From: Halobacteriovoraceae bacterium | GTDB lineage: Bacteria > Bdellovibrionota > Bacteriovoracia > Bacteriovoracales > Bacteriovoracaceae | NCBI GenBank assembly: GCA_963719505.1 | Contig: CAVRCF010000001.1 | Location: forward strand, 1,120,001-1,184,000 | Direction of reading: 5' to 3' | Length of the DNA stretch: 64,000 bases | In this document: piece after piece, positions 11,139 to 63,459 of the stretch | Numbering within the stretch: the first letter of the stretch is position 1 | How the letters are laid out: each line of letters opens with the position of its first letter | The notes under the pieces: model-generated | What the model saw: only the letters and a program-made list of their open reading frames with translations | Told to the model about the DNA's origin: nothing | The model's database searches: none | Translations under genes and position numbers: made by a program

Positions 11139-11139
11139 T

Positions 11140-11166
11140 TTAATACCTGCACTTTCACTCCGATAC
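11140..11166 (+). promoter_or_regulatory. Sigma28/FliA-like promoter
   Basis: TTAA-N15-TCCGATAC, 7 nt before GTG 11174. Confidence 0.4.
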
Positions 11167-11173
11167 AGTTGGA

Positions 11174-12082
11174 GTGAAAACGATATTTATACTGATGATA
11201 TTTACTTTAAACTCTTCCTTTGCAAATGGTATTGTCCATTTGGATGGGCAATTGAGCCAATCATTAAAGTGGACTAAATATAGTAAAGACGAAAAACTAA
11301 ATCTTAAATTTTTGCTTCTCTATCTCGCTAAATCCGATACAGGTAGGGATCTCATCAGAGCCGCTAACAATAAGGCAAAGTCTTATGGATTAGGACTTTA
11401 TGATATTATTTTACCTGGTCGAGGATCAATAACGGATACGACTTTAATTAGAAGATTTAGTCAGGATAATCCAGACAATATCTCATACGAATCACGTTCT
11501 AAAGTTTACATCAATAGTGAACTTAACCAATATGATGCTCTTCTGGATCTTTCCCATGAATTGACACATTTTGTTCATCGAACGGCTTTTAATCCATACG
11601 ATCATAAATTCACCTTACCAAAGTTTATAGAAAGCACAGTTGAGGGAGAGGGCGGTGAGGTCCATGCCTTTTTAACCGAGTGCAAGGTTCTCCATGAGCT
11701 TTTCCCAAAACGAGTTCAGTCGAGATACAATTGCAAAAAAATTATAAGTGCTGATACAGGAAAAATATCAAAAGATATTGCCGTCAAAAAGTTCTATTCG
11801 ATAGGCCCTTATTACTCAAATTTTAAAACGAAACTTGATCTTCATGGGATTGCAGGAGACTTTCCCCTCATCTCGAGAAGTGAAGTCGGCTTCGTCTCTT
11901 CTGCTTATGGTATGCCTTACCCCGTCGCTGCTTACCACGAATATCAAAGCGTGTTAACGAAAGTTTGTGAGAATGATAAGCGAAGAATTGCGTATATGAA
12001 AGTTGGTGAGAAGGGAAGAACTCCGGCATCTATTTCAAAAGTAAAATCTGAATACTTGGATCGATGCTCAAGTCTAGAATAG
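11174..12082 (+). CDS. Secreted protein with HEXXH metallopeptidase-like motif
   Basis: Signal peptide; LSHELTH followed by EVHAF. Confidence 0.6.
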   Translation: MKTIFILMIFTLNSSFANGIVHLDGQLSQSLKWTKYSKDEKLNLKFLLLYLAKSDTGRDLIRAANNKAKSYGLGLYDIILPGRGSITDTTLIRRFSQDNPDNISYESRSKVYINSELNQYDALLDLSHELTHFVHRTAFNPYDHKFTLPKFIESTVEGEGGEVHAFLTECKVLHELFPKRVQSRYNCKKIISADTGKISKDIAVKKFYSIGPYYSNFKTKLDLHGIAGDFPLISRSEVGFVSSAYGMPYPVAAYHEYQSVLTKVCENDKRRIAYMKVGEKGRTPASISKVKSEYLDRCSSLE

Positions 12083-12088
12083 AATCAA

Positions 12089-12463
12089 CTAGTCCTCAAA
12101 GTGATGAATACCATCAACAACGAGTTTACCTTTACTATTTAATTTAAGAACGAACCAATTATCCCCAAACGTCGATTCACTTTTCTCTTTAATATTTACA
12201 AAGTACAGCTCGTCGACGGCACCTTTTTGAACTTTGATATCAAAATCACCCAGCTTTTTCTTTGCTTTTTTGGATTGAAAAGTATCTTTAATAAAACCGT
12301 TGAGTGTCTGAGCTTTAAAGTAAGACTCTGAAACATTGTCTTTGTAAGTTTCAAGGTCTTTGTTAAAAATAGATTCTATATAAGCCTTAGAAACTTTGGT
12401 TGCATCCTCTTTAGAGGCAGCCAGGCAAAGAGAGGAGAGCATAAGAAAGATTAGAACCTTCAT
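12089..12463 (-). CDS. Small secreted hypothetical protein (NTF2-like fold possible)
   Basis: Signal peptide; ATGA overlap with the upstream amidase gene. Confidence 0.6.
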   Translation of the reverse strand: MKVLIFLMLSSLCLAASKEDATKVSKAYIESIFNKDLETYKDNVSESYFKAQTLNGFIKDTFQSKKAKKKLGDFDIKVQKGAVDELYFVNIKEKSESTFGDNWFVLKLNSKGKLVVDGIHHFED

Positions 12464-14511
12464 ATATTCAACTCCTTTACAATCTCATCCTTCTCATCAT
12501 AGAGCCTATCGAGGATTTGATTTGCTCTTACGATCTCCGATGCTCTGTGAGTGCTAGGAAGAGAGTCTTTAAAAATCTCTGTATTGATTTCTAATATAAG
12601 GGCTTCTTGTGTCTTTATCTTATTCATCAGAGCTATAAACTCAGAGTAGGCTGGCTTATATCTATAGCTTACAGCTCTTCCCACTCTTACTTTTTCCAGA
12701 TGTTTATACTTTGAGTTTTTGTACTTGTTAAATTCTTCATCTTTAGAGAGATAAACCTCTAATCCCGTTATTCGACCAACTTCACTAAGTATTTCTTGAA
12801 CTGTTCCTGGGCAAGCTGTGTTTTTAAAGTAGTTATGTGGAACAAGTTTTTTTATATTTGGGTAGTCTTTCTTGAGTGCTTTTACTAAAGCGACAAGTTT
12901 AGGAACAAGTGCATGTTTGACCTTTGATATGTTTACTTTCTGTGCTCGATAAATTTCTGTGCCGTAGAAAGTTCTACTTTGGTGAGTGTCAAAGTTTCCA
13001 ACCACAGCAACACCAATTGATGTCATATTACCACTGAGAGAACCATCTTCATTGACGTCAGCAACATTACTTGTGGTCATGGCACATTTAAACTTATTGT
13101 TTTTAAAGCTTGTATCTTCACAGATATTTTTTGTCGTTATATTTGATCTATTGCTTTGAACTTGAGTTAAATCTTCTTTGCAGTTATAAGACTGAAAAGT
13201 TGAATAGAGAGAATTAATTTTTTCTGGTCCAAGGGGGAGTGTGTCTCCTCCTGCATGGGCACCTCTAAATGCAGGATTTCGACCCTGTATAATAGCGGGC
13301 TTTTCTAAACTTGAACCATTTGATCCCATTCCAATGAGATAGTTGTAGCCGACCATATACCATGAGCTGTTGGCCGTTGTTCTGTTCACGTGCATTTTAT
13401 GAATAGCTTCGGCATTTGTGTTTAGATTCGTTCCATCTCCAGTATGATGAACGACAACAGTATCGATAATATCAGGGCCTCTCATATTGTAAGTTGCATC
13501 TTCAGTCGGCTTTTTCGTCTTAAAGTAATCAATTTTTATTGGACATAAGCGGTCGACAAAACTTCTTTGGTCCAAGTCCACAGGTGGTGTTGGAGTTATA
13601 AGTGTAGGCTTAACAGGCTTAAAAATTGTGTTGAGATCTTTTGAGTTTAAAATATCAGCGATATCGGTTAGATCTCTTTTAAGAGTCGGTGTAGGAGCGA
13701 CATCAATCATATTTGCTGGGCAAAAGTTATTTTCATTATTCTCCAGAACTAATGCTCTAAAGTCAGATTTGCTACAGTAGTCCTTATAGTCTTCAAAATT
13801 CTCAGAATAGATAGAGACGATTGAGTCCATTATTTCTTTTTGAATAGAATCAAGTTTTCTACTGACCTGACTTAACGAGTCCGACTTATCAGAAAAACGT
13901 TTTGTGCTATTGGGATTAAAGGATTTTAAGGCACGTGAGGTTTCCTTAATGTTATTTATAATTTGTTGATTTTCATGATCGAGTCTTCCTATTTCGTCCA
14001 CAAGTTTAGATGTGGCTAGATCCCAAGAGTCGAGTTTTAAGTTTTCAGGGAGATTTTTAAAAAGTTCAGGCTGACTTCTTTGAAGTTCTTTCCATCTTTT
14101 AACAATGGTAAAATATCCTTCGATTTCTACATCTTCAGGGTCTGGGCTATTAGTTAGCCAATCAAAAAAGCCATAATTCATAAAGCTTCTATAGGGTTTG
14201 TTTTTTAAAAGATAGCTCTCGAATTCAGGATCAAGGTTTTTCATGGACAGCCACATTTTTGCCAGCTCTGGTTGATCATCTAGAGAGTTTGTATCAAAGT
14301 TTTTTAGTGTTGAGATGACGGAAGCTAAAAGCTTCTTCTTTGTTCGCTCTATTGATTTATCGAGATTTTTTACGGTTAAATCTTTATAGACCCAATCGAG
14401 AACTTTTTGACATAGCTCCCTGCTGTTCAAACCCGATGTTTGAGCGGTGGCCTGAACATTGATCATGCATATCAAAACCAGAACGAGTGAATGTCGAAAA
14501 AAAGACTTCAT
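12460..14511 (-). CDS. Secreted protein with N-acetylmuramoyl-L-alanine amidase (Amidase_2/PGRP-like) domain
   Basis: VVHHT, VGYNYLI, GAHA, SIGVAVVGNFD, PHN...TACPG zinc-amidase motifs. Confidence 0.8.
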   Translation of the reverse strand: MKSFFRHSLVLVLICMINVQATAQTSGLNSRELCQKVLDWVYKDLTVKNLDKSIERTKKKLLASVISTLKNFDTNSLDDQPELAKMWLSMKNLDPEFESYLLKNKPYRSFMNYGFFDWLTNSPDPEDVEIEGYFTIVKRWKELQRSQPELFKNLPENLKLDSWDLATSKLVDEIGRLDHENQQIINNIKETSRALKSFNPNSTKRFSDKSDSLSQVSRKLDSIQKEIMDSIVSIYSENFEDYKDYCSKSDFRALVLENNENNFCPANMIDVAPTPTLKRDLTDIADILNSKDLNTIFKPVKPTLITPTPPVDLDQRSFVDRLCPIKIDYFKTKKPTEDATYNMRGPDIIDTVVVHHTGDGTNLNTNAEAIHKMHVNRTTANSSWYMVGYNYLIGMGSNGSSLEKPAIIQGRNPAFRGAHAGGDTLPLGPEKINSLYSTFQSYNCKEDLTQVQSNRSNITTKNICEDTSFKNNKFKCAMTTSNVADVNEDGSLSGNMTSIGVAVVGNFDTHQSRTFYGTEIYRAQKVNISKVKHALVPKLVALVKALKKDYPNIKKLVPHNYFKNTACPGTVQEILSEVGRITGLEVYLSKDEEFNKYKNSKYKHLEKVRVGRAVSYRYKPAYSEFIALMNKIKTQEALILEINTEIFKDSLPSTHRASEIVRANQILDRLYDEKDEIVKELNI

Positions 14512-14517
14512 GCTCTC

Positions 14518-14544
14518 TTATCGGGTCAATGCGTAGAATACTTA
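14518..14544 (-). promoter_or_regulatory. Sigma28/FliA-like promoter
   Basis: Minus strand TAAG-N15-CCCGATAA, 6 nt before the amidase ATG. Confidence 0.45.
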
Positions 14545-14585
14545 AGCTAAATTGTTTGGTATTTGGTGTCTGTAAGTTGTTGGAA

Positions 14586-14945
14586 TTAATCATCTCCCAG
14601 ATTGATCGTGATATTTTCGAAGACCATTTTCTCTAAATAATCAATTTCGATAACAGCATCTTTATGTTTGCGGTTGGCCCTATCTTCCCATGTGTCGTAG
14701 ACCAAATGGCCTTTAATAAAAACTTTATCTCCCTTTGAGAGCATCGTTTTGTTATTTTCAGCTTGCTTACCCCAGCGTCTGCACTTGTGCCAAAATGTTT
14801 TTGGCTTGAGGTCTTTGGGAGCAGTGGCTTTTAACCTTTCACTGACTCCGACTGAAAGAGTAAGAACGGCAGTATTATTTTTAGTGTACTTCAGTTCAGG
14901 GTCAGTCCCTAAGAATCCAATAATTGTAATTTCAGAAAAGCTCAT
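14586..14945 (-). CDS. ssb: Single-stranded DNA-binding protein (short, OB fold only)
   Basis: IIGFLGTDPELKY, FWHKC..WGKQAE, LSKGDKVFIKGHL. Confidence 0.85.
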   Translation of the reverse strand: MSFSEITIIGFLGTDPELKYTKNNTAVLTLSVGVSERLKATAPKDLKPKTFWHKCRRWGKQAENNKTMLSKGDKVFIKGHLVYDTWEDRANRKHKDAVIEIDYLEKMVFENITINLGDD

Positions 14946-14952
14946 ATTATCC

Positions 14953-15738
14953 TTATGACGAAGCGGAACTATAGACCTTTAAGCCTCGTTTCCATATAAA
15001 AAGACTAGTACAAAACAAGGCCAAAGTCATCCCAACCACTGTTAACACAATTTCCCAAGTCGCCTCTTCTAGTAGGAATGATGCTGGATACGAAGCCATG
15101 ACTCCAAAAGGTAAAATATAGAGAAAGGCAAATCTAGCTGGGCCTTTGAAAATCTTCATCGGTCTCTCCATCACATGGGAGGCGGCAAAAAAGACATCTG
15201 CAAAACCTCTAGGGGAGCCAGACCAAAAGACACTTAGAAGAAACATTAGGTGCACAAGAAAGTACATCAAAGTTCCAAATAAAAGTAAGACGATAAAGCC
15301 TATAATTTTGAAGGTTGAAAATTCGCCGGGGTAGCTGACAATCATCGTTGTTAAAAGTGCGCAGGCTATGATGAGATTAACAAAAGAGTTTGCCGCGAAG
15401 TCCTTAAAAGAGAGGAAGAAAAGTGTTGAGACAGGCTTTGTAAGATAATAGTCTAAGTCACCTCTGTTTATATAAATAGGAAGCCACCAACAGTTGGTTG
15501 AAAATACAGTCATATGAAGTGCATCAATAAAAATATAGCCCGCAATAAATATAGACATCTGGTCCATATCCCAACCGGCAAGGGTATTCGTGTGAAGATA
15601 CAACACATTAAAGAAAAGAAATTGAACAAGATAGAAAATGCAATCCATCAATATTCGAAAGCAAAAATCCAATCTAAACTGCAGAGCTTTACTAAAAGAG
15701 AATTGAAGAAAGTAGGCATATAGTCTTAAATATCTCAT
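14953..15738 (-). CDS. ABC-2 family transporter permease
   Basis: Multiple TM helices, GDLDYYLTKP motif; operon with ABC ATPase. Confidence 0.85.
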   Translation of the reverse strand: MRYLRLYAYFLQFSFSKALQFRLDFCFRILMDCIFYLVQFLFFNVLYLHTNTLAGWDMDQMSIFIAGYIFIDALHMTVFSTNCWWLPIYINRGDLDYYLTKPVSTLFFLSFKDFAANSFVNLIIACALLTTMIVSYPGEFSTFKIIGFIVLLLFGTLMYFLVHLMFLLSVFWSGSPRGFADVFFAASHVMERPMKIFKGPARFAFLYILPFGVMASYPASFLLEEATWEIVLTVVGMTLALFCTSLFIWKRGLKVYSSASS

Positions 15739-16547
15739 ATGCCGACCCCAGTATATTGATACTTTCCTTTAGTCCAAATAAAGTGAGAGAGTGCGGCAAA
15801 TAAACCCATCCAAAGAAGAAGTATGCCCAAACTTTGAAAATAAGAAAAATACGTAAATTCCCCAAAAAAGACTTTCATCGGAAAATTTATCATGTAAGGA
15901 AAAGGCGTATAATTCAATATCTCTAGAGACCACTGAGGAAAAAAGGAAATGGGAATAATCGCTCCACCAAAGAAGCTTGTAATAAAACGAGTCACTACGC
16001 CTAGTGACCAGATATTATCAGCCCAAAAAGCAAGGAGCTCAGTAATTGAATTGAGAAAAAAGTAAGTGATGGAAGAGACAATTAAGACAATAACAAAAAG
16101 AGTAAGATTTACAAATGAGAAGGAGACCTCTGATTTAGTATCAAAGAAAACCGAGTAAATAAAAGTTAGAGCAAATAACTGAAAAATAAAAAATGAAGAA
16201 TGTGCAAGGTAGGTTGCAATTTTATAGAGATAAAAACTTAAAGGGTAGAGGAGAAACTTATTGAGTCTTCCCTCGTAAATATCACCTGAGATAGCCCCAA
16301 TCGTCTCTCCCTGCTGCAATCGAAAAACGATGGGAACGATGAGGTAGTAAAAAAAGATTTTATTGAGGGTGAAGCCATTAATTGAGTCCACACCTTGCGC
16401 TTCAAAAATACTTGACCATAGGTAGAAAGCGATGAGTATGGAAAAAATAGTTTGACCAAGAAAGTTAATCCAAAAGTCAGACCTGTAGGTAATAAGTTTC
16501 CTAAGTTCCATCAAATAGATATTTCTAAAGGTCGATAGGCCACTCAT
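15735..16547 (-). CDS. ABC-2 family transporter permease
   Basis: Multiple TM helices, GRLNKFLLYP and GGAIIPISFFP. Confidence 0.85.
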   Translation of the reverse strand: MSGLSTFRNIYLMELRKLITYRSDFWINFLGQTIFSILIAFYLWSSIFEAQGVDSINGFTLNKIFFYYLIVPIVFRLQQGETIGAISGDIYEGRLNKFLLYPLSFYLYKIATYLAHSSFFIFQLFALTFIYSVFFDTKSEVSFSFVNLTLFVIVLIVSSITYFFLNSITELLAFWADNIWSLGVVTRFITSFFGGAIIPISFFPQWSLEILNYTPFPYMINFPMKVFFGEFTYFSYFQSLGILLLWMGLFAALSHFIWTKGKYQYTGVGI

Positions 16548-17527
16548 TAGTGAGTTTCTTTCTTCATAATTTCTTCAATAATTGATCCAATATCTTCTTC
16601 TTGGATACTTAAATCAATAACTGAGATTGAGTTCATAAGACTTTTAGAGACCTCAATGGCAAGCTCTTTAGGTGCGTAGATGGTTATGATTCCGCCTTGG
16701 AAGGAGGTTTCACAGTGTTCAAAATATAAGGCTTTGGCTTTATCAAAATCTTCTAAAGAGATAGAAGCTCTAATAAGTCTATTTGTCGCGTACTCTTGTT
16801 TGATTTTTTGAATAGATCCATCAAAGATAAAGGTTCCCTCTTTCATAATAACAACTCTTTCACAAAGTTCTTCAATGTCCTCCATGTAGTGCGAGGTTAA
16901 AATCATGATGGGCTTATGTTTTTCTCGATATTCTTTTATAAACTTGCGAACGGCTTTTTGAGCGAGAAGATCGAGTCCTATTGTGGGCTCATCTAAAAAA
17001 ACGACTTTAGGTTTGTGTAAAAGTGCAGCAATAAGCTCTACTTTCATTCTCTCTCCAAGTGAGAGCTTGCGAACTTGAACCTTTAATTGGTCTTGGACCA
17101 TAAGACACTGTGAAAGATAATCAACCGATTCGCGAAACTCTTGGTCTGGAATTTTATAGATTTCTTTTAAAAGTAAAAAGCCATCCATTGCAGGAAGGTC
17201 CCACCATAGCTGAGCTTTTTGGCCCATGATAAGTGACATCTGGCGTCTATATCTATTGTCTTTTTTCCATGGGTCAAAGCCCACAACGGATACTTCTCCC
17301 GACGATGGGTGGATGATTCCAGAGAGAATTTTTGTAAGCGTTGTTTTTCCAGCACCATTAGATCCAATAAGACCAATGATTTCACCAGGATTAACCGTGA
17401 GATTGATGTCTTTAAGAGCTTGCTTTGTAATATACTTTCTAGAGAAGAGTGATTTTAAAGAACCGAGAAACCCCGGCTCTTTTGTATGAACTTTAAACGT
17501 TTTTGATAAGTTTTTGACTTGAATCAT
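16547..17527 (-). CDS. ABC transporter ATP-binding protein
   Basis: GSNGAGKTT, LSLGE, FLDEPT. Confidence 0.95.
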   Translation of the reverse strand: MIQVKNLSKTFKVHTKEPGFLGSLKSLFSRKYITKQALKDINLTVNPGEIIGLIGSNGAGKTTLTKILSGIIHPSSGEVSVVGFDPWKKDNRYRRQMSLIMGQKAQLWWDLPAMDGFLLLKEIYKIPDQEFRESVDYLSQCLMVQDQLKVQVRKLSLGERMKVELIAALLHKPKVVFLDEPTIGLDLLAQKAVRKFIKEYREKHKPIMILTSHYMEDIEELCERVVIMKEGTFIFDGSIQKIKQEYATNRLIRASISLEDFDKAKALYFEHCETSFQGGIITIYAPKELAIEVSKSLMNSISVIDLSIQEEDIGSIIEEIMKKETH

Positions 17528-47834: not shown

Positions 47835-47911
<77 letters not shown>

Positions 47912-48009
47912 TTTTAAGTCATTTCAAGTACTTGCAATCATTATGTTTTAAGCCCTAAAGTCGAACCCGTAAAGGTTCGATAAACCTATGAGCTTAAAAT
48001 GAGGTTTTT

Positions 48010-55790: not shown

Positions 55791-56321
55791 TTAAGCCGCC
55801 AGCTTCGTTGATGCTTTTTTTTGTTTCTTGTTCTCTCTTGCTCTTTTATTATTTTCTGCACTTGTGACAACTTCCAAGTTCTCGGCTCTATTATCTGACC
55901 TAATCTTATTACCGTGATCAACTTGGCATTTGGTGCCCAAAATTAGACCAGTAAAGCATTCGATCATTAATCTATGCACATACATGTTATTCGATTTTCC
56001 TTTACCGATTCCATGGGTAATGTAGCGATATTCATTAGGCTTAGCGGTTAGCTTTCTCTTTTTCCTGGGACCAAATACTTCACCTTTGATATTTATCGAG
56101 AGTGGCAAGTATGGGTGAGCTATCAATTTCTCTTTGAAATTCTTCTTTTTAAACGCCTTAGCCTTAGCAATAGCTTCTTTGAATTTCTTATTGACTAAAT
56201 CAATCTTCTCGACGCCAATCGGTGTCATCGTCTGAGCTTTGATCTTTCTGTCGTTCATCATTTTTTGTGTTTGTGTCATTTTCTTTGCTTTTGCTTTCAT
56301 CTTCTTTGCTTTTGTTTTCAT
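55791..56321 (-). CDS. HNH homing-type endonuclease
   Basis: VHRL...VDHGNKIRSDNRAENLEVVTSAEN. Confidence 0.88.
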   Translation of the reverse strand: MKTKAKKMKAKAKKMTQTQKMMNDRKIKAQTMTPIGVEKIDLVNKKFKEAIAKAKAFKKKNFKEKLIAHPYLPLSINIKGEVFGPRKKRKLTAKPNEYRYITHGIGKGKSNNMYVHRLMIECFTGLILGTKCQVDHGNKIRSDNRAENLEVVTSAENNKRARENKKQKKASTKLAA

Positions 56322-56372
56322 CTCGCCTCCCAGGCTATTACGTTCTTTAGAGCATTTGCCCGTTCTGGAAAG

Positions 56373-56384
56373 TAATATACCTTT
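56373..56384 (-). promoter_or_regulatory. Element-specific motif AAAGGTATATTA, copy 2
   Basis: Exact 12-mer 51 nt upstream of the HNH ATG. Confidence 0.65.
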
Positions 56385-56561
56385 GTTGAAAAAAAGTGCT
56401 TTTTTAGGGGGTTTAGAATCGAACCATTTGTTACAAACTGTTGTTTTTGTTGGTTTTTTACTGCTTTCGCCATTTTGAGGGTGATTTAAAATAAAACGAA
56501 AGGGAGCTATTTTTTTTTGAGAGGTATATTGTTAAAAACGGACCAAGCGATGGAGCTAATT

Positions 56562-56675
56562 GTGTTTAAAAGAGAGCCTAGTATTTTAGAGAAGACGATA
56601 GAATCAACAATCGATGTCTTTGTCGTTGGATTTAAAGCTACTCTGTATTTAATAATTCAAATGCTAAGAGAATAA
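56562..56675 (+). CDS. Small hydrophobic protein (37 aa), not in ORF track
   Basis: SD GGAG plus GTG; MFKREPSILEKTIESTIDVFVVGFKATLYLIIQMLRE*; variant motif AGAGGTATATTG at 56520-56531. Confidence 0.5.
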   Translation: MFKREPSILEKTIESTIDVFVVGFKATLYLIIQMLRE

Positions 56676-56698
56676 ATTAAATCACTTCGGAGAGACTC

Positions 56699-56827
56699 AT
56701 GGAAAATAATGAATTTACAATATCTAAGATATGTTTTTTGACCATAGTTTCAGGATTATTCCTTGGAATTCTGGTCACTTATTGGTCTGTTAACGAGATT
56801 ATTCTAGTTATCGAATCACTCCGCTAG
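56699..56827 (+). CDS. Small single-TM protein (42 aa), not in ORF track
   Basis: SD GGAG plus ATG; MENNEFTISKICFLTIVSGLFLGILVTYWSVNEIILVIESLR*. Confidence 0.55.
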   Translation: MENNEFTISKICFLTIVSGLFLGILVTYWSVNEIILVIESLR

Positions 56828-56852
56828 ACCAAGCGAGGCCCTCTTGAATCTA

Positions 56853-56864
56853 AAAGGTATATTA
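56853..56864 (+). promoter_or_regulatory. Element-specific motif AAAGGTATATTA, copy 3
   Basis: Exact 12-mer 29 nt upstream of ATG 56894. Confidence 0.65.
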
Positions 56865-56893
56865 AGCAAAACAACAACAACAAGGAGAGGATA

Positions 56894-57388
56894 ATGGAGA
56901 AAGAATTCAACACTACTGTAGAAGACAAGTTTAGAGACGCTCAAAACCTGTTTAAGCAACAACTAAGGAGTAACAACAAGGCTGAGAAAGCTATTGGTCT
57001 AGTATTTTTCTCCCTAACTACTTCGTGGACTCTAGTCCTTATTCATAGCTATCTCTTTTCTACTTATTTCGATAAAAGCTTTAAGGATCTTTATATTCTA
57101 ACTGTTTTCATCTCCATACTTTTTTCTGGAGGCTTGGATTATTCCCTATTTGCTCTCTTCAGATTTACAACGAGCAAAGTGGTATTAATCGTCAATATCG
57201 TACTTTTCTCATATCTATATTATGTAGTTGGAACTCATTCGCTTTTAATTGGACTGGCTATCAACATTGCTCTTCTGTTTTATAGATTCTTAGCACCCAG
57301 TAAGTACTTGATGTTCAGTAATGAATTTATAGATGAGCAGCAAGCTAACCTTAATATCAAATCAACAGATTTATGTAAAAGACACTAG
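56894..57388 (+). CDS. Integral membrane protein (about four TM)
   Basis: SD AAGGAGAGG; hydrophobic segments. Confidence 0.75.
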   Translation: MEKEFNTTVEDKFRDAQNLFKQQLRSNNKAEKAIGLVFFSLTTSWTLVLIHSYLFSTYFDKSFKDLYILTVFISILFSGGLDYSLFALFRFTTSKVVLIVNIVLFSYLYYVVGTHSLLIGLAINIALLFYRFLAPSKYLMFSNEFIDEQQANLNIKSTDLCKRH

Positions 57389-57397
57389 GAGGTCATA

Positions 57398-57868
57398 ATG
57401 CATCTTAATAAATTAATATCAGCACAACGATTAGCGGCATCAGAGCAAAATAGCTTTCCGGCTACAGTATCTCCTAAGGCTGATTACGTAATTAAATTTT
57501 TGTTTGCTGTTTTGCTATATCCTCTTTATTTACTATTCAAAGTTAAAGAGAGTATTTTAAATTCTTTTAAAAATAGAAGAACCACCAAGGTATGGGATGA
57601 CGAAGATCAAGAGTTTAAAAACACTCAAGCCGCCAGTGAAACTATCGCCTACGATACAAACCTTCTTCATAGCATAAGAATTATCTTTTCTTCTTTTATG
57701 ATGATTGATGATGATAACAAAGAAAGAAGGTTTTATCACCAATACTACAACGTCACCGAGCTAATCGCTTATGTATCATCACTATATAGACATGTGGACT
57801 ATATTTTACTTTGCGTGTTTTATACAGGGTTCTTGGTAAGATTCATGAAATTCGTATTGGAGTCGTAA
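57398..57868 (+). CDS. Membrane protein
   Basis: SD AGGAGG; two hydrophobic segments; TAATG coupling to the next gene. Confidence 0.7.
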   Translation: MHLNKLISAQRLAASEQNSFPATVSPKADYVIKFLFAVLLYPLYLLFKVKESILNSFKNRRTTKVWDDEDQEFKNTQAASETIAYDTNLLHSIRIIFSSFMMIDDDNKERRFYHQYYNVTELIAYVSSLYRHVDYILLCVFYTGFLVRFMKFVLES

Positions 57869-60465
57869 TGGAAGATAAATATATGTATTTAATTATTGCC
57901 GTTTGCCTTTTATTTGTAATCCCGGTAATAAAGTTACTTGGTTGGCTTTTAAGTAAGATTATTCGTGTTAATCCAATTCATGATAAGAATTATTATGACA
58001 AGATTAATAGAGAGAATAATAACGGGGGAGAGACTCCATATGGGGAGTTACTTACCTTAAGAGATCTTACTGTTATACAAAAGACTCGAAAGGTTTATAA
58101 CTATACAGATAATCTTGGATACCAAAGAAGAGAAGAGAGGGAGATTGAAGAGACTATTTATCCATCTGTTAAGAAGATAAAAAATGGTGTCCAAATCCAT
58201 TTCAGCGAAGAGTTAAGGAATACTGAGTTTACAAAAGATAGCTATACTCGATATATCGCTGATGTTTTTAACCAGAATTCTGTTACTGAGACTAAGAAGC
58301 TCCTAATGGTGAGAACTCCAAATCCATATATTGTTAATTACTTCCAAGTACATCCAGTTAATTACATGTTTAAGACGCCAATTGATGAGGATAGTGAGTT
58401 TAAAGCCAAACTCGATAAAGTATTAGATAAAGACAGCGCAGAACTTCTATTTGGAGAACCTCAAGTTGAATTAAACGTTCCGGATCAGATAGTTTGGCCA
58501 TTAACAGCTTCTCCTCATGTATTAGTTGCTGGTCAGACAAGATCCGGTAAGACTAAGACTATACTTAGTTTTATAACTCAAATTGCTACTGTCTATCCAG
58601 AGTCTAAATTTTTCTTCGCTGATGGTAAGAGTTCACCTGACTATGATCATTCTGCGGAATTTTTATCATCTCTACCTGTAGCAAAACCCCACCATAGTGA
58701 AGATCCATTAGTGAATCTCGCTTACATGGTTGATAAGGTGTGGGCAGAATATGAGAATCGTAAGAGATTATTTGAAGAACTAGCAGTTAAAGGAAATTCA
58801 TGTAGTACCTATATTGAGTATAATAATTATGTAGATGAAAAGCTCCCTCGTGTGTTTTTATTTATTGATGAATTTGCAGCGTTTTGTTTACTTGCCCCAG
58901 ATAAGGTAGCCTCTCTATTAACAGTCAAAGGTACTCTATTTAACAAGATTAGAAGATTGCTCGCAGAATCGGCTTCATATGGGTTTAGTATTATAATAGC
59001 TTCTCAAAGGGTACAAAATACGGATTTCCCAACTGCAATTCGTGATAATCTAACTACGTGGCTTATCCATTCAGTAAATGAGAAAGCTGCTGAATTTCTT
59101 GATCTTAAAGGGAAGGTGGGGAAACTTAAGCCTGGAGCGTTCATATTGAAGATACAAGGTTTAAGGTGTGAAAACTCTGGCGAAGCTAATATCGAATCAA
59201 GATTGCCTTATGTCGGTAACGAGCCTCAAAAGGTTAAGACCTTAAAGAAGGATATAGTTAAAGAATCTTTTGATGAAGATTACATTTATACTACTGGACT
59301 TGATACTGATTATTCCAAGCTTCCTCCTAATTCATTAAAGAAATATGTAAAGAACCTATTTTGTGTAAGAGAAGGTTTTGAAGTTATCAAGAATGAAGAT
59401 GCTGAACATGATCACCTTTCTCTGTTTGTTAAGAAAGGTAATAAGCAATATGCAATTGGTTTCGTTGAAGTAGATGAGCTTATAGATGAAACATTCTATA
59501 CTCGTTTAAATCGATTTCTTTCAGATGAAGAGAAGCTAATGCAGAAGATTTTTTTTGTAAGAGGTAATATTACCTCAAAAGCTAAAGAAACAAATATCTC
59601 TGAACTAGTTGATATGAACGGTGATATCGCCCTAATACAGCAGGATTATGTGCGTAGGCTTAAGAAGGCTAAGAAGCTGTATGATGATGGGGATAGTGAA
59701 GAGATCTTCTCTGCATTACTTGTTGGTATCAAAGCAGATGAGAAGAAAGAAGCTCTTTTAATCGACAAGAAGGATGCTGAGCTAGGAAGTGTTGAGATCT
59801 CTATTAACGAATTAGAAAGGATCAATAATCTCTCAGGATCTTCTGATGCCCAAAAGATAGCTAAAGGGGAGCAGTTTGAGAGATTCGTTCACGCTCTATT
59901 TAGACAAATTGGTTGGACTACATACACCCCAGAACTGCTATTCGCTAAGAGGATCTATAAAAGACCTGGCGATGTTGGGGATTTAGGGCTGGATATGTTA
60001 TTAGCTAAAACAGATACGGATCTCAGAGAACTATCGCAAGAAGAAGCTGATAATAGAGTTGCTGTACAGATCAAGAATTGGAACTCAGCAATTCCGGCAA
60101 AGGTTCTTGGTGAAGTATTGAGATCCTACCACAATTTTAAATGTCTCAAGAATGGAACTCCTATCAAAAAAGGGATGGTTGTCTCAACGTCCACATACAC
60201 CCAATATACAAAGTTAGAGGCTTCAAATCAAGGAATAGAGCTCATAGGATACAATGACCTAAGAAAGCTCGTTATAGACGCTGTGAGGGACGCTCAGAGC
60301 GCAGGAGAAGCACATCAGGCTATCCCTTTTGCTGAGATGGATAGAGATGAGCAAATCCTTCATTTAAACGAGCAAGGACTAAGTTTGAGAGATATCGCTA
60401 CTAGAGTAGGGGTTAAGTCTCCATCTACTGTTAGGAACGTATTGAAAAAAGCGGAGGCTGCATGA
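57868..60465 (+). CDS. TM + FtsK/SpoIIIE ATPase + Mrr-like restriction endonuclease + C-terminal HTH fusion
   Basis: PHVLVAGQTRSGKT, ADGK, FIDEFA, IIASQR; GEQFERFVHALF..GW, GDLGLD, AVQIK, GMVVSTSTYT, GIELIG; GLSLRDIATRVGVKSPSTVRNVL. Confidence 0.85.
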   Translation: MEDKYMYLIIAVCLLFVIPVIKLLGWLLSKIIRVNPIHDKNYYDKINRENNNGGETPYGELLTLRDLTVIQKTRKVYNYTDNLGYQRREEREIEETIYPSVKKIKNGVQIHFSEELRNTEFTKDSYTRYIADVFNQNSVTETKKLLMVRTPNPYIVNYFQVHPVNYMFKTPIDEDSEFKAKLDKVLDKDSAELLFGEPQVELNVPDQIVWPLTASPHVLVAGQTRSGKTKTILSFITQIATVYPESKFFFADGKSSPDYDHSAEFLSSLPVAKPHHSEDPLVNLAYMVDKVWAEYENRKRLFEELAVKGNSCSTYIEYNNYVDEKLPRVFLFIDEFAAFCLLAPDKVASLLTVKGTLFNKIRRLLAESASYGFSIIIASQRVQNTDFPTAIRDNLTTWLIHSVNEKAAEFLDLKGKVGKLKPGAFILKIQGLRCENSGEANIESRLPYVGNEPQKVKTLKKDIVKESFDEDYIYTTGLDTDYSKLPPNSLKKYVKNLFCVREGFEVIKNEDAEHDHLSLFVKKGNKQYAIGFVEVDELIDETFYTRLNRFLSDEEKLMQKIFFVRGNITSKAKETNISELVDMNGDIALIQQDYVRRLKKAKKLYDDGDSEEIFSALLVGIKADEKKEALLIDKKDAELGSVEISINELERINNLSGSSDAQKIAKGEQFERFVHALFRQIGWTTYTPELLFAKRIYKRPGDVGDLGLDMLLAKTDTDLRELSQEEADNRVAVQIKNWNSAIPAKVLGEVLRSYHNFKCLKNGTPIKKGMVVSTSTYTQYTKLEASNQGIELIGYNDLRKLVIDAVRDAQSAGEAHQAIPFAEMDRDEQILHLNEQGLSLRDIATRVGVKSPSTVRNVLKKAEAA

Positions 60466-60875
60466 ACAAATCAGATATAATTGAGAAGATCGAAACTCTT
60501 AAGAGTATGCCTGTTTTTAAGAAAAGGTTCTTGTCTAAAGATGGGTATCTAATTCCCATTAGGCTCACAATCATCAAATCGAACAAGATTAATGCCTGCG
60601 TATACAAACAAGGATCAAGAAGGGATGTCGCCAATATGAACGTTAATTCGTCATATTTTGGTTTAACTGAGAATCAGAAACTTTTCATTATAGCGCATGA
60701 GATGACCCATATTTTACATAGGGACTATTCTTTCATAGGGGCTCATTTACCTATAGTTTCTCGCATTAAAGAGAAAAGGGCAGATATAACAGCCGCCAAA
60801 GTATGTCGAGATATGGGTATTGATATGGGTGAAATTATAGAACTATTTAAGGGGCCACAAAAGAGGAATATTTAG
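60462..60875 (+). CDS. HEXXH zinc-metallopeptidase-like protein (M48/ImmA-like)
   Basis: INAC, FIIAHEMTH, EKRAD; ATGA overlap with the FtsK fusion. Confidence 0.75.
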   Translation: MNKSDIIEKIETLKSMPVFKKRFLSKDGYLIPIRLTIIKSNKINACVYKQGSRRDVANMNVNSSYFGLTENQKLFIIAHEMTHILHRDYSFIGAHLPIVSRIKEKRADITAAKVCRDMGIDMGEIIELFKGPQKRNI

Positions 60876-60939
60876 CAGGATAGCTTCGTTTCTTGAGGAC
60901 TCCCATCCATCTCATTATGATCGATTTCAATACCTCAAG

Positions 60940-61124
60940 GTGTTCATTCAAGTGTCCATTTAGCTGTTCATATCTGTCCAATCCAGATTGAACGGCCGTT
61001 CATTTCAAATTCTAAATTGCTGTAATTACATGAGAATGAACACTTAACAGGTGAAATGAACAGGTTTCAGAGAATATTTGTGTGTGACGGAATATATTGA
61101 TAATTATCGATATATTTTGAACAG
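60940..61124. repeat. Array of TGTYCA boxes, direct then inverted, around a palindrome
   Basis: TGTYCA at 60941, 60953, 60965 and 60975; palindrome TGAACGGCCGTTCA 60989-61002; inverted TGAACA near 61037, 61057 and 61118. Confidence 0.6.
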
Positions 61125-61296
61125 CAGATGTTGGATGAGGGAGAGGAGAGCCTCATATATTAAGCCCTTAGATTATATACATATAAATATTATTTAATTA
61201 GTTGTTTAGTTAGTTGCTTAATGAGCTTACGTAGATCACTGACTCCTATGATCTTTATGTAAGCTCACTAACTTCATACTTACACAACCTTTTGGA

Positions 61297-61893
61297 CTAT
61301 CTTGATTTATCTAGATCAACTCTGTATTCAGTCCCTAGTTTGCCTTCGATCTCGTGATAAGTTAGCACAAAATCTTTTGTCATTATGACCTCTCCAGCTT
61401 GGATTACTTTAGGATTATTAAATCCCTCATTTATAGCTTTCTCTAGTTCTAAAGCATTCTTCCTCTTAACCTTATTGCGCTTCATCCCAAGGCAGTGAAA
61501 ACCAGAACAATCCCATTTCATAAGAGCTTTTTTAGCTTGTTGTTTAAGTGCTTCAACATCAGAAGAATTGTCTATGTAAAGAGAATAGTCATCCAAGGTT
61601 TTATATTCAATATGTTTCACATCTTTATCATGGGTGTAGGTAACTTTCACATTGAATTTCTTTGTTATAACTTCTAACCCAGATCTGATAATTTTGATCT
61701 CCTCTTTGCCTACTTGATCAAGAACTTCTATTTTGTGATTGAGAGTCGTTCTATTTTCATTGTTTATTGTCTCGTAATATCTATCTCTGATCTTCTCATT
61801 TAATGAGTTGCTTACTTCCTCTGGTAGAGAAGAGGTACAACTAGCAAAAAATAGAATTGATATTACACTAAGTAGGTTTCCGATTTTGATCAT
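61297..61893 (-). CDS. Lipoprotein, hypothetical
   Basis: Lipobox FASC; SD AAGGAG; extended -10 TGTGCTATAAT at 61937-61947. Confidence 0.75.
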   Translation of the reverse strand: MIKIGNLLSVISILFFASCTSSLPEEVSNSLNEKIRDRYYETINNENRTTLNHKIEVLDQVGKEEIKIIRSGLEVITKKFNVKVTYTHDKDVKHIEYKTLDDYSLYIDNSSDVEALKQQAKKALMKWDCSGFHCLGMKRNKVKRKNALELEKAINEGFNNPKVIQAGEVIMTKDFVLTYHEIEGKLGTEYRVDLDKSR

Positions 61894-62013
61894 TTATTCT
61901 CCTTTTTGGTTTCGTTATGAAGTGTTGCCTTTTAGTATTATAGCACAGTATGTAACGATGCGTTAGTGTTAATTTAAAATGGTTCTAGTTTCATTATTTG
62001 GAGATAATCAATG

Positions 62014-62288
62014 AAAAGCGACCACCAATAAATTTTATATAAAAAAGCGACCACCAATAAATTTTATATAAAAAAGCGACCACCATTAAATTGTTTAAAA
62101 GCGACCACCTCAAGTGTTTGAAATATCGATCAGGTGATCCATTTTAAAAAGCGACCACTAGTTTTGCTAAGTATTTGATACTACATAAAAGCGACCACCT
62201 TTAATTGGATCTGGTCCGAAAAAAGGACGTAAATAGCCGTAAATATGCTGGATTAGGTGGTCTCACTAATAATTAATAAAAGCGACCA
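62014..62288 (+). repeat. Iteron-like array of AAAAGCGACCAC(C) direct repeats
   Basis: Copies at 62014, 62043, 62072, 62097, 62147, 62187 and 62278 (last one 11 nt); inverted variant 62255-62264; first two units form a perfect 29-bp tandem. Confidence 0.9.
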
Positions 62289-62304
62289 TTAAGAAGAAAT
62301 CTTA

Positions 62305-62904: not shown

Positions 62905-63459
62905 CTAAGCTACAGAACGTTGCCATTCCTCATCTTCGTCATCAAAGTGAGAATCAAGTAAAGTCCCTCTGTAAAAAAGCTCAGGAAAAGCATCCACAAC
63001 GGAATCGATCTCCTCAATTGTAGTGTCTAGGGCAATGATCATGTGATTCAAATCCATTTCAGTCTGTAGTAGCTGGAAAATTTGTCTTTGTTTCGAATTC
63101 AAACGACTAAGGCCTTCTACTGGTATCTCGACAGCTACATCTTTAAACTGTACTGAAGAGAGCGGTGGAACTATCCCTGTTGTTATTGCTATCCTGGAAT
63201 CCCAATCAATGATTCTTTTTATAGCTTCTTCATTAATTAAACTGTTAATAGAAGCGGTGATATGAGTTTCGAGATCAGATTCTTCCGAATCCCAAGTTCT
63301 CAAGCCTAGCCAAATAGCGATATTTCCTAATTGTGAAACTTCTTCTCGATAGAAAGAGTCCTCAATCATAATTGAGTCAGCAATTTTCTGAATCAACGGT
63401 CTAAATTTAGCTAATTGGTTTTTAAAAGTCTCTTTTTCGCTTTTCTTTGAGTTTTTCAC
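62905..63459 (-). CDS. Sigma-70-family sigma-factor-like protein
   Basis: Region 2-like FRPLIQKIA...EEVSQLGNIAIWLGLRTWD...LETHITASI; region 4-like LSRLNSKQRQIFQL. Confidence 0.6.
   Translation of the reverse strand: MKNSKKSEKETFKNQLAKFRPLIQKIADSIMIEDSFYREEVSQLGNIAIWLGLRTWDSEESDLETHITASINSLINEEAIKRIIDWDSRIAITTGIVPPLSSVQFKDVAVEIPVEGLSRLNSKQRQIFQLLQTEMDLNHMIIALDTTIEEIDSVVDAFPELFYRGTLLDSHFDDEDEEWQRSVA

Follow-up and report, generated by a model that had tools for sequence, protein, structure and literature searches.

In a 64,000-nucleotide stretch of the genome of a Halobacteriovoraceae bacterium (Bdellovibrionota; assembly GCA_963719505.1, contig CAVRCF010000001.1, positions 1,120,001 to 1,184,000), hereafter the window, a four-gene operon encodes an 865-residue protein of rare design: it fuses a membrane anchor to an FtsK-like motor, a nuclease of restriction type and a tail that reads DNA. 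The operon sits in a mobile element of about 22.7 kb that is integrated at a tRNA-Arg gene. We propose that it specifies a membrane-tethered, ring-forming motor for double-stranded DNA (dsDNA) with a built-in endonuclease, and that this machine belongs to the backbone of tRNA-integrating elements that form a family in the Bdellovibrionota. The biochemical picture, an FtsK/TcpA-type ring ATPase at the inner membrane with one dead and one live restriction-fold domain per subunit, is well grounded. As to its purpose, we lean tentatively, at somewhat short of an even chance, towards a cut-and-pump machine for DNA donation, like TraB of Streptomyces or TdtA and the nucleases of the Thermus element ICEth1.

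The operon and its 865-residue fusion protein

The four-gene operon (56894-60875) is real, and its open reading frames (ORFs) and couplings match exactly what an earlier note on this stretch had described, namely tightly coupled genes with a 9-nt gap, a TAATG and an ATGA; coordinates and junctions were verified in the sequence (Table 1). ORF1 ends in TAG and is followed by a 9-nt gap containing GGAGG before ORF2. The stop codon of ORF2 overlaps the ATG of the 865-residue ORF in a TAATG at 57866-57870, and the stop codon of the latter overlaps the ATG of the 137-residue ORF in an ATGA at 60462-60465. Each of the last three start codons is preceded by GGAG(G), 4-5 bases upstream. An alternative TTG start would give 884 residues for the 865-residue ORF, but the ATG at 57868 is favoured because the ribosome-binding motif is found there and the alignment of relatives starts there. 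A crude hydropathy scan counted four transmembrane (TM) segments in ORF1, two in ORF2, one in the 865-residue protein (residues 6-24) and none in the 137-residue protein; with the Pfam match to Peptidase_M48 in the last of these, this agrees with the two membrane proteins and the HExxH protein announced previously. A promoter and terminator scan of 56200-61400 gave nothing exceeding shuffled expectation, and no inverted repeat that might mark an origin of transfer was found upstream of the operon (56300-56900).

Table 1. Position of the operon, the domains of its fusion protein, the repeat arrays and the genes of the element (window coordinates).
Feature	Position	Strand	Details and basis
ORF1	56894..57388	+	164 aa; 4 predicted TM segments; no known family
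ORF2	57398..57868	+	156 aa; 2 predicted TM segments; no known family
865-aa TM / FtsK motor / degenerate REase-like / Mrr nuclease / HTH protein, whole gene	57868..60465	+	
N-terminal membrane helix	57871..57963	+	residues 2-32; AlphaFold2 model and hydropathy scan
FtsK/TcpA-type ATPase core	58399..59217	+	residues 178-450; Pfam, invariant columns, Foldseek, family profile against PDB sequences
Middle domain, restriction-endonuclease-like fold, probably catalytically dead	59305..59685	+	residues 480-606; model, Foldseek, VIA, alignment A2
Mrr_cat nuclease domain	59803..60312	+	residues 646-815; E671, D in GLD stretch, Q734-x-K736; Pfam
C-terminal three-helix HTH	60343..60459	+	residues 826-864; HTH_38 (below cut-off), AlphaFold2 model
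137-aa M48-like HExxH protein	60462..60875	+	Pfam; alignment A4
Array 1: 4 copies of TGTTCAT (2 direct, 2 inverted) and a 26-bp palindrome	60931..61124	.	directly downstream of operon
Array 2: 7 same-strand copies of the AAAGCGACCA(CC) core, iteron-like	62009..62295	+	
tRNA-Arg (anticodon TCT), integration target	47835..47911	+	ARAGORN
attL, left copy of the 28-bp direct repeat	47887..47914	.	exact-word genome scan downstream of the tRNA
Tyrosine integrase, 413 aa	48010..49251	+	Pfam Phage_integrase, phrog_1; 29% identity to G256-element integrase
Short tyrosine-recombinase-like protein, 204 aa	52779..53393	-	Pfam Phage_integrase; BLASTP 29%, E 2e-23, to L025 3203-3772 (G256 element)
Metallophosphoesterase-type nuclease candidate, 395 aa	54594..55781	-	phrog_1745 ('DNA transfer protein') E 1.8e-50, phrog_221
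HNH endonuclease, 176 aa, divergent from operon	55791..56321	-	Pfam HNH_3 E 2.3e-12; PHROGs

The domain order that the earlier note had proposed, a TM helix, FtsK/SpoIIIE, a linker, an Mrr-like nuclease and a helix-turn-helix (HTH), is agreed upon by Pfam, an AlphaFold2 model and Foldseek. Two features go beyond it: a second, degenerate restriction endonuclease (REase)-like domain lies between motor and Mrr domain, and the operon lies within an integrated element. Pfam FtsK_SpoIIIE (PF01580; residues 206-347, 31 bits, cut-off 24) and Mrr_cat (PF04471; residues 666-801, 47.2 bits, cut-off 21) pass their gathering scores; HTH_38 (residues 828-861, 23.4 bits, E 4.8e-5) falls under its cut-off of 27. 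The AlphaFold2 model was built on 47 family sequences and has a mean pLDDT (predicted local distance difference test) of 85.6 and a pTM (predicted template modelling score) of 0.71. In this model, the membrane helix is followed by a disordered linker (residues 33-83, pLDDT below 50) and by a small beta-rich domain of lower confidence (about residues 78-160), and one long helix (614-639) stands between the middle domain and the Mrr domain.

By Pfam, Walker motifs and fold, the motor is a member of the FtsK/SpoIIIE family. Walker A residues G222, G227 and K228 and Walker B residue E335 are invariant among the 47 aligned sequences, and D334 is nearly so. In a Foldseek search of the Protein Data Bank (PDB), the FtsK motor 6t8o_A ranked first (E 9.6e-15, ~400 columns, TMt 0.62), closely followed by TcpA (5.2e-13) and then by EccC/EssC. 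HerA, HerA-NurA complexes, STIV B204 (E 6.9e-6) and the C-domain of DndH were matched as well, HerA, B204 and DndH much more weakly. A profile of the 14 closest sequences, compared with PDB sequences, matched TcpA (1e-13) slightly better than FtsK (2.9e-12). PHROGs placed the protein in an 'FtsK/SpoIIIE-like protein' family (E 2e-21). The NCBIfam matches to EccC/EssC and TraB are weak and far below threshold; plasmid_TraB (NF041214) scored 20.2 bits against a cut-off of 800, over residues 361-413 only, and the window protein is therefore not a TraB. The motor would form a hexameric, dsDNA-translocating ring.

Folded alone, the middle domain reached a pLDDT of 86.7, with a topology of helix, three strands, helix, strand. 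Foldseek returned no match for it at E<=1e-3, but nearly every weak row is a PD-(D/E)xK nuclease or the inactive partner of one (Cdn1, LmuA, FANCM-FAAP24, Mus81-Eme1, FokI, EndoMS and Hjc). VIA, which is independent of Foldseek, placed AF1548 (1y88_A) on top (Z 8.1, root-mean-square deviation 3.0, 107 residues aligned), and most of the next rows are BspD6I subunits, Can2, FokI, LlaBIII and Card1. The modelled fold is thus read as restriction-endonuclease-like with moderate confidence only, since a Z near 8 is moderate evidence. An alignment of the 14 closest sequences (A2) contains no conserved aspartate, (D/E)xK or acidic/lysine triad in this domain, which is therefore probably catalytically dead.

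In the Mrr domain, E671, G707, Q734, K736 and N737 are invariant among the same 14 sequences. The aspartate is found in a G-L-D stretch; an insertion in the query displaces the alignment there, and the exact column of this residue is a matter of interpretation. By Pfam score and catalytic motif, the domain is a member of Mrr_cat, and it may cut DNA. Active and inactive nucleases are paired in XPF-ERCC1, Mus81-Eme1 and the BspD6I nickase; such a pair makes nicking or controlled cutting, coupled to translocation, plausible for the window protein.

In the 137-residue protein, Peptidase_M48 (PF01435) was matched with 26.6 bits against a cut-off of 20.3, at residues 36-89 only. The protein keeps HExxH and the downstream E-x-R-A-D, and H79, E80, H83, E104, R106, A107 and D108 are invariant in an alignment with two relatives (A4). 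It lacks a hydrophobic hairpin of ~50 residues and a C-terminal HP.T..R stretch, both of which are present in the M48 proteins of two related loci (genomes G256 and G385, described below). Because hairpin and C-terminal motif are lost, it is a reduced, probably soluble form of the relatives' M48, which by its topology would be a membrane-embedded protease with a cytoplasmic active site. A complex prediction of residues 33-865 with the M48-like protein (score 0.01, mark 0.32) was uninformative on binding. ORF1 and ORF2 matched no family in Pfam, PADLOC, PHROGs or NCBIfam, phmmer found no relatives of either among 154 fetched proteins, and the Atlas leads for ORF1 are all below 0.9. The 'membrane partners' are thus not conserved in sequence, although the G256 operon has a 5-TM protein two genes upstream of the fusion gene.

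An integrative element and a rare protein family

The borders of the element are given by a 28-bp direct repeat consisting of the last 25 bases of the tRNA plus 3 more. It recurs once, 22,723 bp downstream and outside the window (window-equivalent 70610-70637; L003 6610-6637). Scans with Pfam, PHROGs and NCBIfam recognised neither capsid, portal or terminase families nor a relaxase or VirB4 family in the element, and they found no other candidate transfer gene in its 22.7 kb. VirB4 was not found in the window's genome (83.5% complete) with either the VirB4-like protein of genome G357 (see below) or PF03135. In another public assembly, the same gene is broken into three frames (77, 506 and 283 aa; P0041, P0001 and P0153) on a contig of 22,652 bp. 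Since this length is close to the repeat-to-repeat distance, it gives a hint that the element may also exist as a free molecule, and it suggests that the element was assembled on its own, possibly as a free circle, from error-prone reads. No sequencing runs, and no source of RNA data, were listed as containing the attL/integrase stretch.

An exhaustive HMMER scan of 1.84 billion cluster representatives with the 865-residue protein gave 352 matches at E<=1e-3, 67 at <=1e-10 and 41 at <=1e-30, and the protein belongs to a rare family. Motor and Mrr domain are both spanned by at least 22 proteins among the 150 matches listed. Pfam recognised FtsK in 34/47 aligned members, Mrr_cat in 27/47 and the HTH in the query alone, and a hydropathy scan predicted a TM segment before Walker A in 39/46 relatives. 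Fusion of FtsK and Mrr, intact Walker A/B and Mrr motifs, and membrane anchoring are family traits. The HTH tail is restricted to the closest relatives, being visible in the alignment in the query, P0004 and P0005 only, plus a cut copy in genome G354.

Relatives extending beyond the ATPase core were found in four of 400 other genomes of the phylum (G357, G385, G256 and G354). In the window's own bacterial family, 3/237 genomes were positive, its own genome (G000) included, and three other species of its genus had no relative; in the family of G256, the count was 2/182. In the latter family (f9), 27/182 genomes have FtsK-like proteins matching the ATPase core only, with open frames of ~360-512 aa (31 places, 28 loci, L098-L125). 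Single-protein scans of viral contigs and genome contigs found no close relative. A scan with the 14-row alignment gave one genome locus, on the same contig as the G357 copy, four metagenome loci (two of them useful) and 57 viral contigs with ATPase-core matches only. IMG/VR likewise held no close relative, only ATPase-core matches, and 13 weak, ATPase-only matches were obtained among 50,697 phage records. When the whole protein and the ATPase core were compared with plasmids and phages, only the core was matched, at 25-30% identity. The best plasmid match was Bdellovibrio plasmid pBdHM1, where the neighbouring genes are 'hypothetical' bar one clpX-like gene. Plasmid relaxases of the restriction-endonuclease type are known as MOB-C/TraX; tblastn of the Mrr-HTH part against plasmids gave nothing at E<=1e-3, and no link to such relaxases was seen.

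Within the Bdellovibrionota, the same parts recur on mobile elements, fused or separate, and often together with an M48 peptidase and a metallophosphoesterase. G256 has a tRNA-Asp element with a homologous integrase (29%). Its long operon comprises a 5-TM protein, a 125-aa protein, an FtsK-Mrr fusion (1088 aa), DUF6011, M48 (195 aa), a 201-aa protein without a known family and a metallophosphoesterase. Beyond the operon, this strand also carries a short recombinase (29% to the window's) and an Mrr_cat gene standing alone. Between G000 and G256, identity amounts to 29% for the integrase, 29% for the short recombinase, 24% for FtsK-Mrr and 24% for M48.

In a first G385 locus (L024, G385:C1:473000-492999, 9804-17138), the parts are separate genes: an 824-aa FtsK without Mrr comes first, followed ~2 kb on by a phage-type metallopeptidase, M48, Mrr_cat and a multi-HTH protein (206 aa, about four HTH repeats). 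This locus adjoins a DUF3854 primase / DNA polymerase A module and a metallophosphoesterase. The occurrence of FtsK, M48, Mrr_cat and HTH as separate neighbouring genes in G385 suggests that these parts are functionally tied. A second G385 locus has a 306-aa FtsK (39% to the window's core) and an Mrr_cat, 5 kb apart. In G354, the copy is cut by the contig end (Mrr and HTH_38) and is directly followed by a full M48, a toxin-antitoxin-like pair and chromosomal genes. In total, the M48 gene accompanies the nuclease in four of eight loci examined (the window, G354, G256 and the first G385 locus).

G357 and the metagenome contig L086 carry the gene alone, divergent from a conserved block with a second FtsK-like ATPase (~600 aa), DUF2227 and a ~1000-aa protein. 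The G357 block also has two small 2-TM proteins, and L086 has two small proteins at the matching position. The 998-aa protein of G357 shows a TraG/VirB4-type P-loop by one Pfam match just over the cut-off (26.8 vs 25.8 bits) and has no sequence match in the PDB. In both loci, the P-loop protein and the second FtsK sit where a relaxase gene would usually be. Pfam relaxase families were absent at E<=1e-5 from the 43 ORFs scanned in the two 20-kb flanks (L090 and L091) and at E<=1e-3 from 15 picked ORFs of the central 20 kb (L023). The G357 region as a whole (L090, L023 and L091; G357:C104:38000-97999) is large and plasmid-like, with the VirB4-like, 600-aa FtsK-like and ClpX-like AAA proteins, four DNA methylase genes, ApeA, and genes for thymidylate synthase and PAPS reductase. 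Plasmid pBdHM1 (L126, AP029175.1), where nearly all genes are annotated hypothetical, shares the 600-aa FtsK-like and the ClpX-like proteins with this region. Every locus with a visible border or hallmark gene looks mobile (window, G256, G357 and L086), and neither the window's element nor those of the relatives contained virion families by Pfam or PHROGs. No counterpart of the short recombinase turned up in the G385, G357 or G354 loci.

The two repeat arrays that the earlier note had placed within 1.5 kb of the operon are both present, the distance being within 1.6 kb, but they differ in weight. Array 1 is the weaker: its TGTTCAT copies fall within ~120 bp, compared with a genome density of 0.18 per kb, and its palindrome lies at 61091-61116, yet TRF reports only a 2.1-copy 12-mer. 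By its position, it is a candidate site for the HTH. Array 2, between two lipoprotein genes and ~1.6 kb from the gene of a 408-aa protein, is highly non-random; the 10-mer AAGCGACCAC has nine copies genome-wide, six of them in 62016-62198, which is far from chance. The proposed link between arrays and protein found no support in a scan of six other loci (L025, L024, L023, L086, L026 and L087), none of which has a comparable array adjoining the FtsK-Mrr gene. The sole other array of at least four 8-mers within 300 bp, five copies of CCATCACC in G256 (L025 16557-16723), abuts the end of a VapE-type primase-helicase gene, not FtsK-Mrr. Because of this neighbourhood, array 2 is, by analogy, probably a set of replication iterons of the element. 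A 184-aa protein with a weak sigma-70-like match (62905-63459, minus strand; NCBIfam E 0.0024) adjoins it.

The 408-aa protein (L001 2445-3671, minus strand; window-equivalent 63945-65171) belongs to phrog_4756, a phage-associated family of unknown function (E 7.8e-44). It has no match in Pfam, NCBIfam or PDB sequences, and its Atlas clusters consist of hypothetical phage and bacterial proteins; by its position it is a candidate replication protein. Besides the metallophosphoesterase of Table 1, the element encodes a second one (L003 4342-5010, plus strand), and such genes are also present in the G256 and G385 elements. The HNH endonuclease matched 15 PHROG families, 13 of them named HNH or endonuclease. 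A 21-bp tandem repeat of 3.3 copies (56254-56323) coincides with the start of the HNH gene and encodes a lysine-rich repeated N-terminus. The element further encodes a weak AbiEi-like HTH protein and several secreted or lipoproteins of no known family.

A proposed role in DNA donation and its rivals

If the protein serves DNA donation, its single N-terminal helix would tether a ring of FtsK/TcpA-type ATPase subunits to the inner membrane, probably assisted by the products of the two upstream genes (4 TM and 2 TM segments). The C-terminal HTH would position the ring on particular DNA, a task that in relatives could fall to other DNA-binding modules or to separate multi-HTH proteins. That DNA would be cut or nicked by the active Mrr domain, with the degenerate REase-like domain as its partner in cis, in the manner of an active/inactive nuclease pair. 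The motor would then drive the duplex from the donor, such that the element would be donated without a type IV secretion system, in the way of TraB with Streptomyces plasmids and of the tdtA operon with ICEth1. The M48-like protease may serve in maturation or control, on the cytoplasmic side of the membrane. What the sequence and the models show directly is how the genes are ordered and coupled, the domains with their intact catalytic motifs, the fold, the borders of the element and the return of the parts in relatives. Hexamer formation, cutting, the direction of pumping, the roles of ORF1, ORF2 and M48 and the biological purpose are what we infer from the genes and the model. A stronger form of this reading, in which a single polypeptide is a complete bind-cut-pump conjugation engine in a diderm predator lineage, with an HTH that locates the element, a restriction-fold nuclease replacing the relaxase, an FtsK ring exporting dsDNA with the help of two small membrane partners and no type IV secretion system, is rather unlikely.

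Several observations argue for donation. Membrane anchoring is a property of membrane-crossing FtsK, SpoIIIE, TraB and coupling proteins, and it is a trait of the family here. The gene resides in element backbones and seems to have diverged together with integrase and recombinase between G000 and G256. The copies in G357 and L086 lie opposite a coupling-protein/VirB4 block, and the 22.7-kb element yielded no other candidate transfer gene. The resemblance of the motor to FtsK and TcpA, the mobile look of every locus with a visible border or hallmark gene, the neighbouring separate parts in G385 and the 22,652-bp contig of the other assembly also speak for this reading. Finally, ICEth1 offers an experimental precedent by analogy, as far as the available part of its description goes (PMC5365140).

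A membrane-sited enzyme of restriction or entry exclusion, that is a translocation-coupled nuclease of the 'HerA/FtsK capture' kind protecting both host and element, is a serious possibility that we credit a little less. Such an inner-membrane enzyme would catch injected or conjugated DNA, which FtsK would reel in and Mrr would cut, and M48 could be a trigger or a safety device, for example by freeing the enzyme from the membrane. Combinations of REase, HerA/FtsK and HTH are listed as predicted defence systems, and tandems of inactive and active REase domains as a theme of conflict systems, in the available part of one survey (PMC10853773); for the MADS system, the ATPase-nuclease module MAD7-MAD8 is described as required for defence in the available part of its account (PMC13662399). 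Consistently, the PADLOC models mad8 (residues 212-408, 63 bits, E 6.8e-18) and SspH (model positions 1536-1718 of 1766, residues 214-410, 46 bits, E 2.6e-13) match the protein, and the catalytic residues of Mrr_cat are intact. The surroundings are rich in nucleases and methylases and include ApeA, the distribution is sporadic, and FtsK-Mrr-HTH plus M48 form a cassette-like pair in G354. On the other side, the mad8 and SspH matches are not full-length. In the PADLOC scan of the four operon products, matches were confined to the ATPase part of the large protein; ORF1, ORF2 and the M48-like protein had none. A membrane anchor and polytopic partners are not among the features of capture systems described in the survey's available text (PMC10853773). 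Between the two elements, the gene diverged in step with integrase and backbone genes and was not swapped like cargo. Unlike most defence genes, the family is of great rarity, and all genomes in which it was seen belong to one phylum. The operon contains no cognate methylase or immunity gene, which is a weak point as a modification-dependent enzyme needs none.

A number of points, some of them shared with the case for restriction, weigh against donation. Mrr_cat is best known from type IV restriction, and P0004, the closest relative and sole named member, is a 'restriction endonuclease [Bdellovibrionales bacterium]' at NCBI. The ATPase scores higher with mad8 (63 bits) and SspH (46 bits) than with Pfam FtsK_SpoIIIE (31) or NCBIfam TraB (20). 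The HTH is missing from most of the family (1/47 by Pfam), and no array comparable to those of the window accompanies the gene in the six other loci scanned. Occurrence is sporadic (3/237 and 2/182 genomes in two bacterial families), and G354 shares with the window's element only the FtsK-Mrr-HTH and M48 pair, which there looks cassette-like. Other Mrr_cat, HNH, GIY-YIG and Endonuclease_NS genes stand alone in the elements, and the G357 region, with ApeA and several orphan methylases, is a setting of conflict genes. With a coupling-type FtsK and a VirB4-like ATPase already in place, the G357 and L086 loci have no obvious use for another pump. Donation would also call for the passage of a duplex through the outer membrane, for which the model offers no explanation. 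Donation is nevertheless placed slightly ahead of restriction, mainly because of the membrane apparatus and the co-divergence with the backbone. The earlier note had offered a DNA transfer or packaging machine and a membrane defence system side by side; after testing, both still lead.

Terminase-like packaging is improbable. In this case, the HTH would recognise, Mrr would cut and FtsK would pump element DNA into a membrane-bounded particle, either a capsid with an internal membrane or a budding vesicle, with ORF1, ORF2 and the lipoproteins of the element as particle components. An HTH, a nuclease and an ATPase make up the parts list of a terminase holoenzyme. The protein has a weak match to phrog_2666, 'terminase large subunit' (E 9.3e-5), and the element encodes secreted or lipoproteins of no known family and the 408-aa phrog_4756 protein. 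STIV B204, a packaging ATPase, is among the fold matches (E 6.9e-6), and FtsK-HerA ATPases package DNA in membrane-containing viruses according to the available part of a published account (PMC6563490). B204 is, however, a far weaker match than FtsK or TcpA. With Pfam and PHROGs, neither the element nor those of the relatives showed virion families such as capsid, portal or tail, and the viral searches yielded no close relative in IMG/VR and only 13 weak ATPase-only matches in the 50,697 phage records.

More improbable still is a role in maintenance or takeover, in which the protein would resolve or segregate element copies with the short tyrosine recombinase (FtsK/Xer-like) or degrade host DNA with the metallophosphoesterases (HerA-NurA/Mre11-like): the short recombinase and the metallophosphoesterases are conserved beside the gene in G000 and G256, one metallophosphoesterase matches phrog_1745 'DNA transfer protein' and HerA-NurA complexes are among the fold matches, but neither role requires a motor-fused nuclease, a membrane anchor and an M48 protease, and the G385, G357 and G354 loci lack a detectable short recombinase.

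Should transfer be the true function, conjugation without a secretion system, so far represented by Streptomyces TraB and Thermus TdtA, would gain a third independent case, and the first in which one chain both cuts and pumps. It would bear on the old question of how a closed duplex enters the ring motor in TraB-type transfer. Should the single polypeptide prove a complete engine, TraB- or TdtA-like transfer would reach a new phylum and a new family of self-transmissible integrative elements would be defined. If, on the other hand, the protein serves defence, it would be the first membrane-anchored system of HerA/FtsK plus restriction nuclease and would provide a testable model for intercepting DNA where it enters. 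The soluble part (about residues 84-865) is tractable for biochemistry and cryo-electron microscopy, since the family is small, well conserved and confidently folded. Moreover, the elements offer a first handle on the largely undescribed mobilome of the Bdellovibrionota.

Comparison with known systems

Streptomyces TraB, which occurs on plasmids and on AICEs (actinomycete elements that integrate and conjugate), resembles the window protein in its combination of membrane anchor, FtsK-type motor and C-terminal DNA-recognition module, and like it is encoded on small integrating elements with neither a relaxase nor a type IV secretion system. A nuclease is absent from TraB, whose winged-helix tail binds 8-bp clt repeats. 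The window protein, in contrast, has two REase-fold domains, a three-helix HTH and no conserved repeat array: with regard to a clt-like arrangement, the HTH is present and two arrays lie within 1.6 kb, whereas no array lies by the gene in the six other loci. The host of TraB is a mycelial actinomycete and that of the window a diderm.

In structure and in profile searches alike, the motor is best matched by TcpA of the Clostridium perfringens plasmid pCW3 and by cellular FtsK/SpoIIIE, which share its N-terminal membrane anchor but, unlike the window protein, lack a nuclease. The type IV secretion system with which TcpA operates has no counterpart that was found in the window's genome (two VirB4 queries; 83.5% complete). 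Mrr, the type ISP enzyme LlaBIII and McrBC resemble the window protein in coupling a nuclease to a motor driven by nucleoside triphosphates, and the PD-(D/E)xK motif of the Mrr family is intact in the window. Their motors are, however, a superfamily 2 (SF2) helicase or an AAA+ GTPase and not an FtsK ring, and, compared with translocating restriction enzymes, the window protein has no Mrr_N-type reader of modified DNA and is membrane-bound.

The Thermus thermophilus element ICEth1 is integrated at a tRNA gene. Its DNA donation needs TdtA, a HerA/FtsK-type hexamer located at the membrane, and equally a nuclease resembling NurA and the restriction enzyme Tth111II, as stated in the available part of its description (PMC5365140). 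On the same partial basis, it shares with the window's system a small element at the 3' end of a tRNA with direct repeats, a ring ATPase from the FtsK-HerA superfamily at the cytoplasmic membrane with nucleases in the same operon, the absence of a type IV secretion system and a host with an outer envelope layer. The window accordingly presents a tRNA-integrated element with direct repeats and with an FtsK-HerA ATPase and a nuclease in one operon. In ICEth1, on the other hand, ATPase and nucleases are separate proteins, whereas they form one chain in the window. TdtA is HerA-like and was modelled on HerA, while the window motor is FtsK/TcpA-like, a comparison made by description, and the available account mentions no M48 protease, HTH tail or TM partner proteins (PMC5365140). 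Donation has been demonstrated for ICEth1; for the window's system, it is a proposal.

The 'HerA/FtsK capture' systems, DndH/SspH among them (PMC10853773), and the MAD7-MAD8 module of MADS (PMC13662399) likewise combine an REase-fold endonuclease, a HerA/FtsK ATPase and an HTH, and have inactive REase domains beside active ones, according to the parts of both papers that were available. Only the ATPase part of the window protein matches them, however, and its order is motor first, then nucleases; the membrane anchor, the TM partner proteins and the M48 protease are features of the window. DndH is listed without a membrane segment, and the kinase, methylase-like, SF2 and Orc/Cdc6 modules of capture systems given in the available text are lacking in the window protein (PMC10853773). 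In the literature, no paper was found that describes an FtsK / REase-like / Mrr / HTH protein with a membrane anchor, or such a protein paired with M48, and published lists of superfamily architectures might contain it. The statement that this is not a described system thus holds for the exact architecture only: combinations of motor, restriction nuclease and HTH, as well as DNA donation without a secretion system, are both already in print, as the available parts of the three papers attest (PMC10853773, PMC13662399, PMC5365140).

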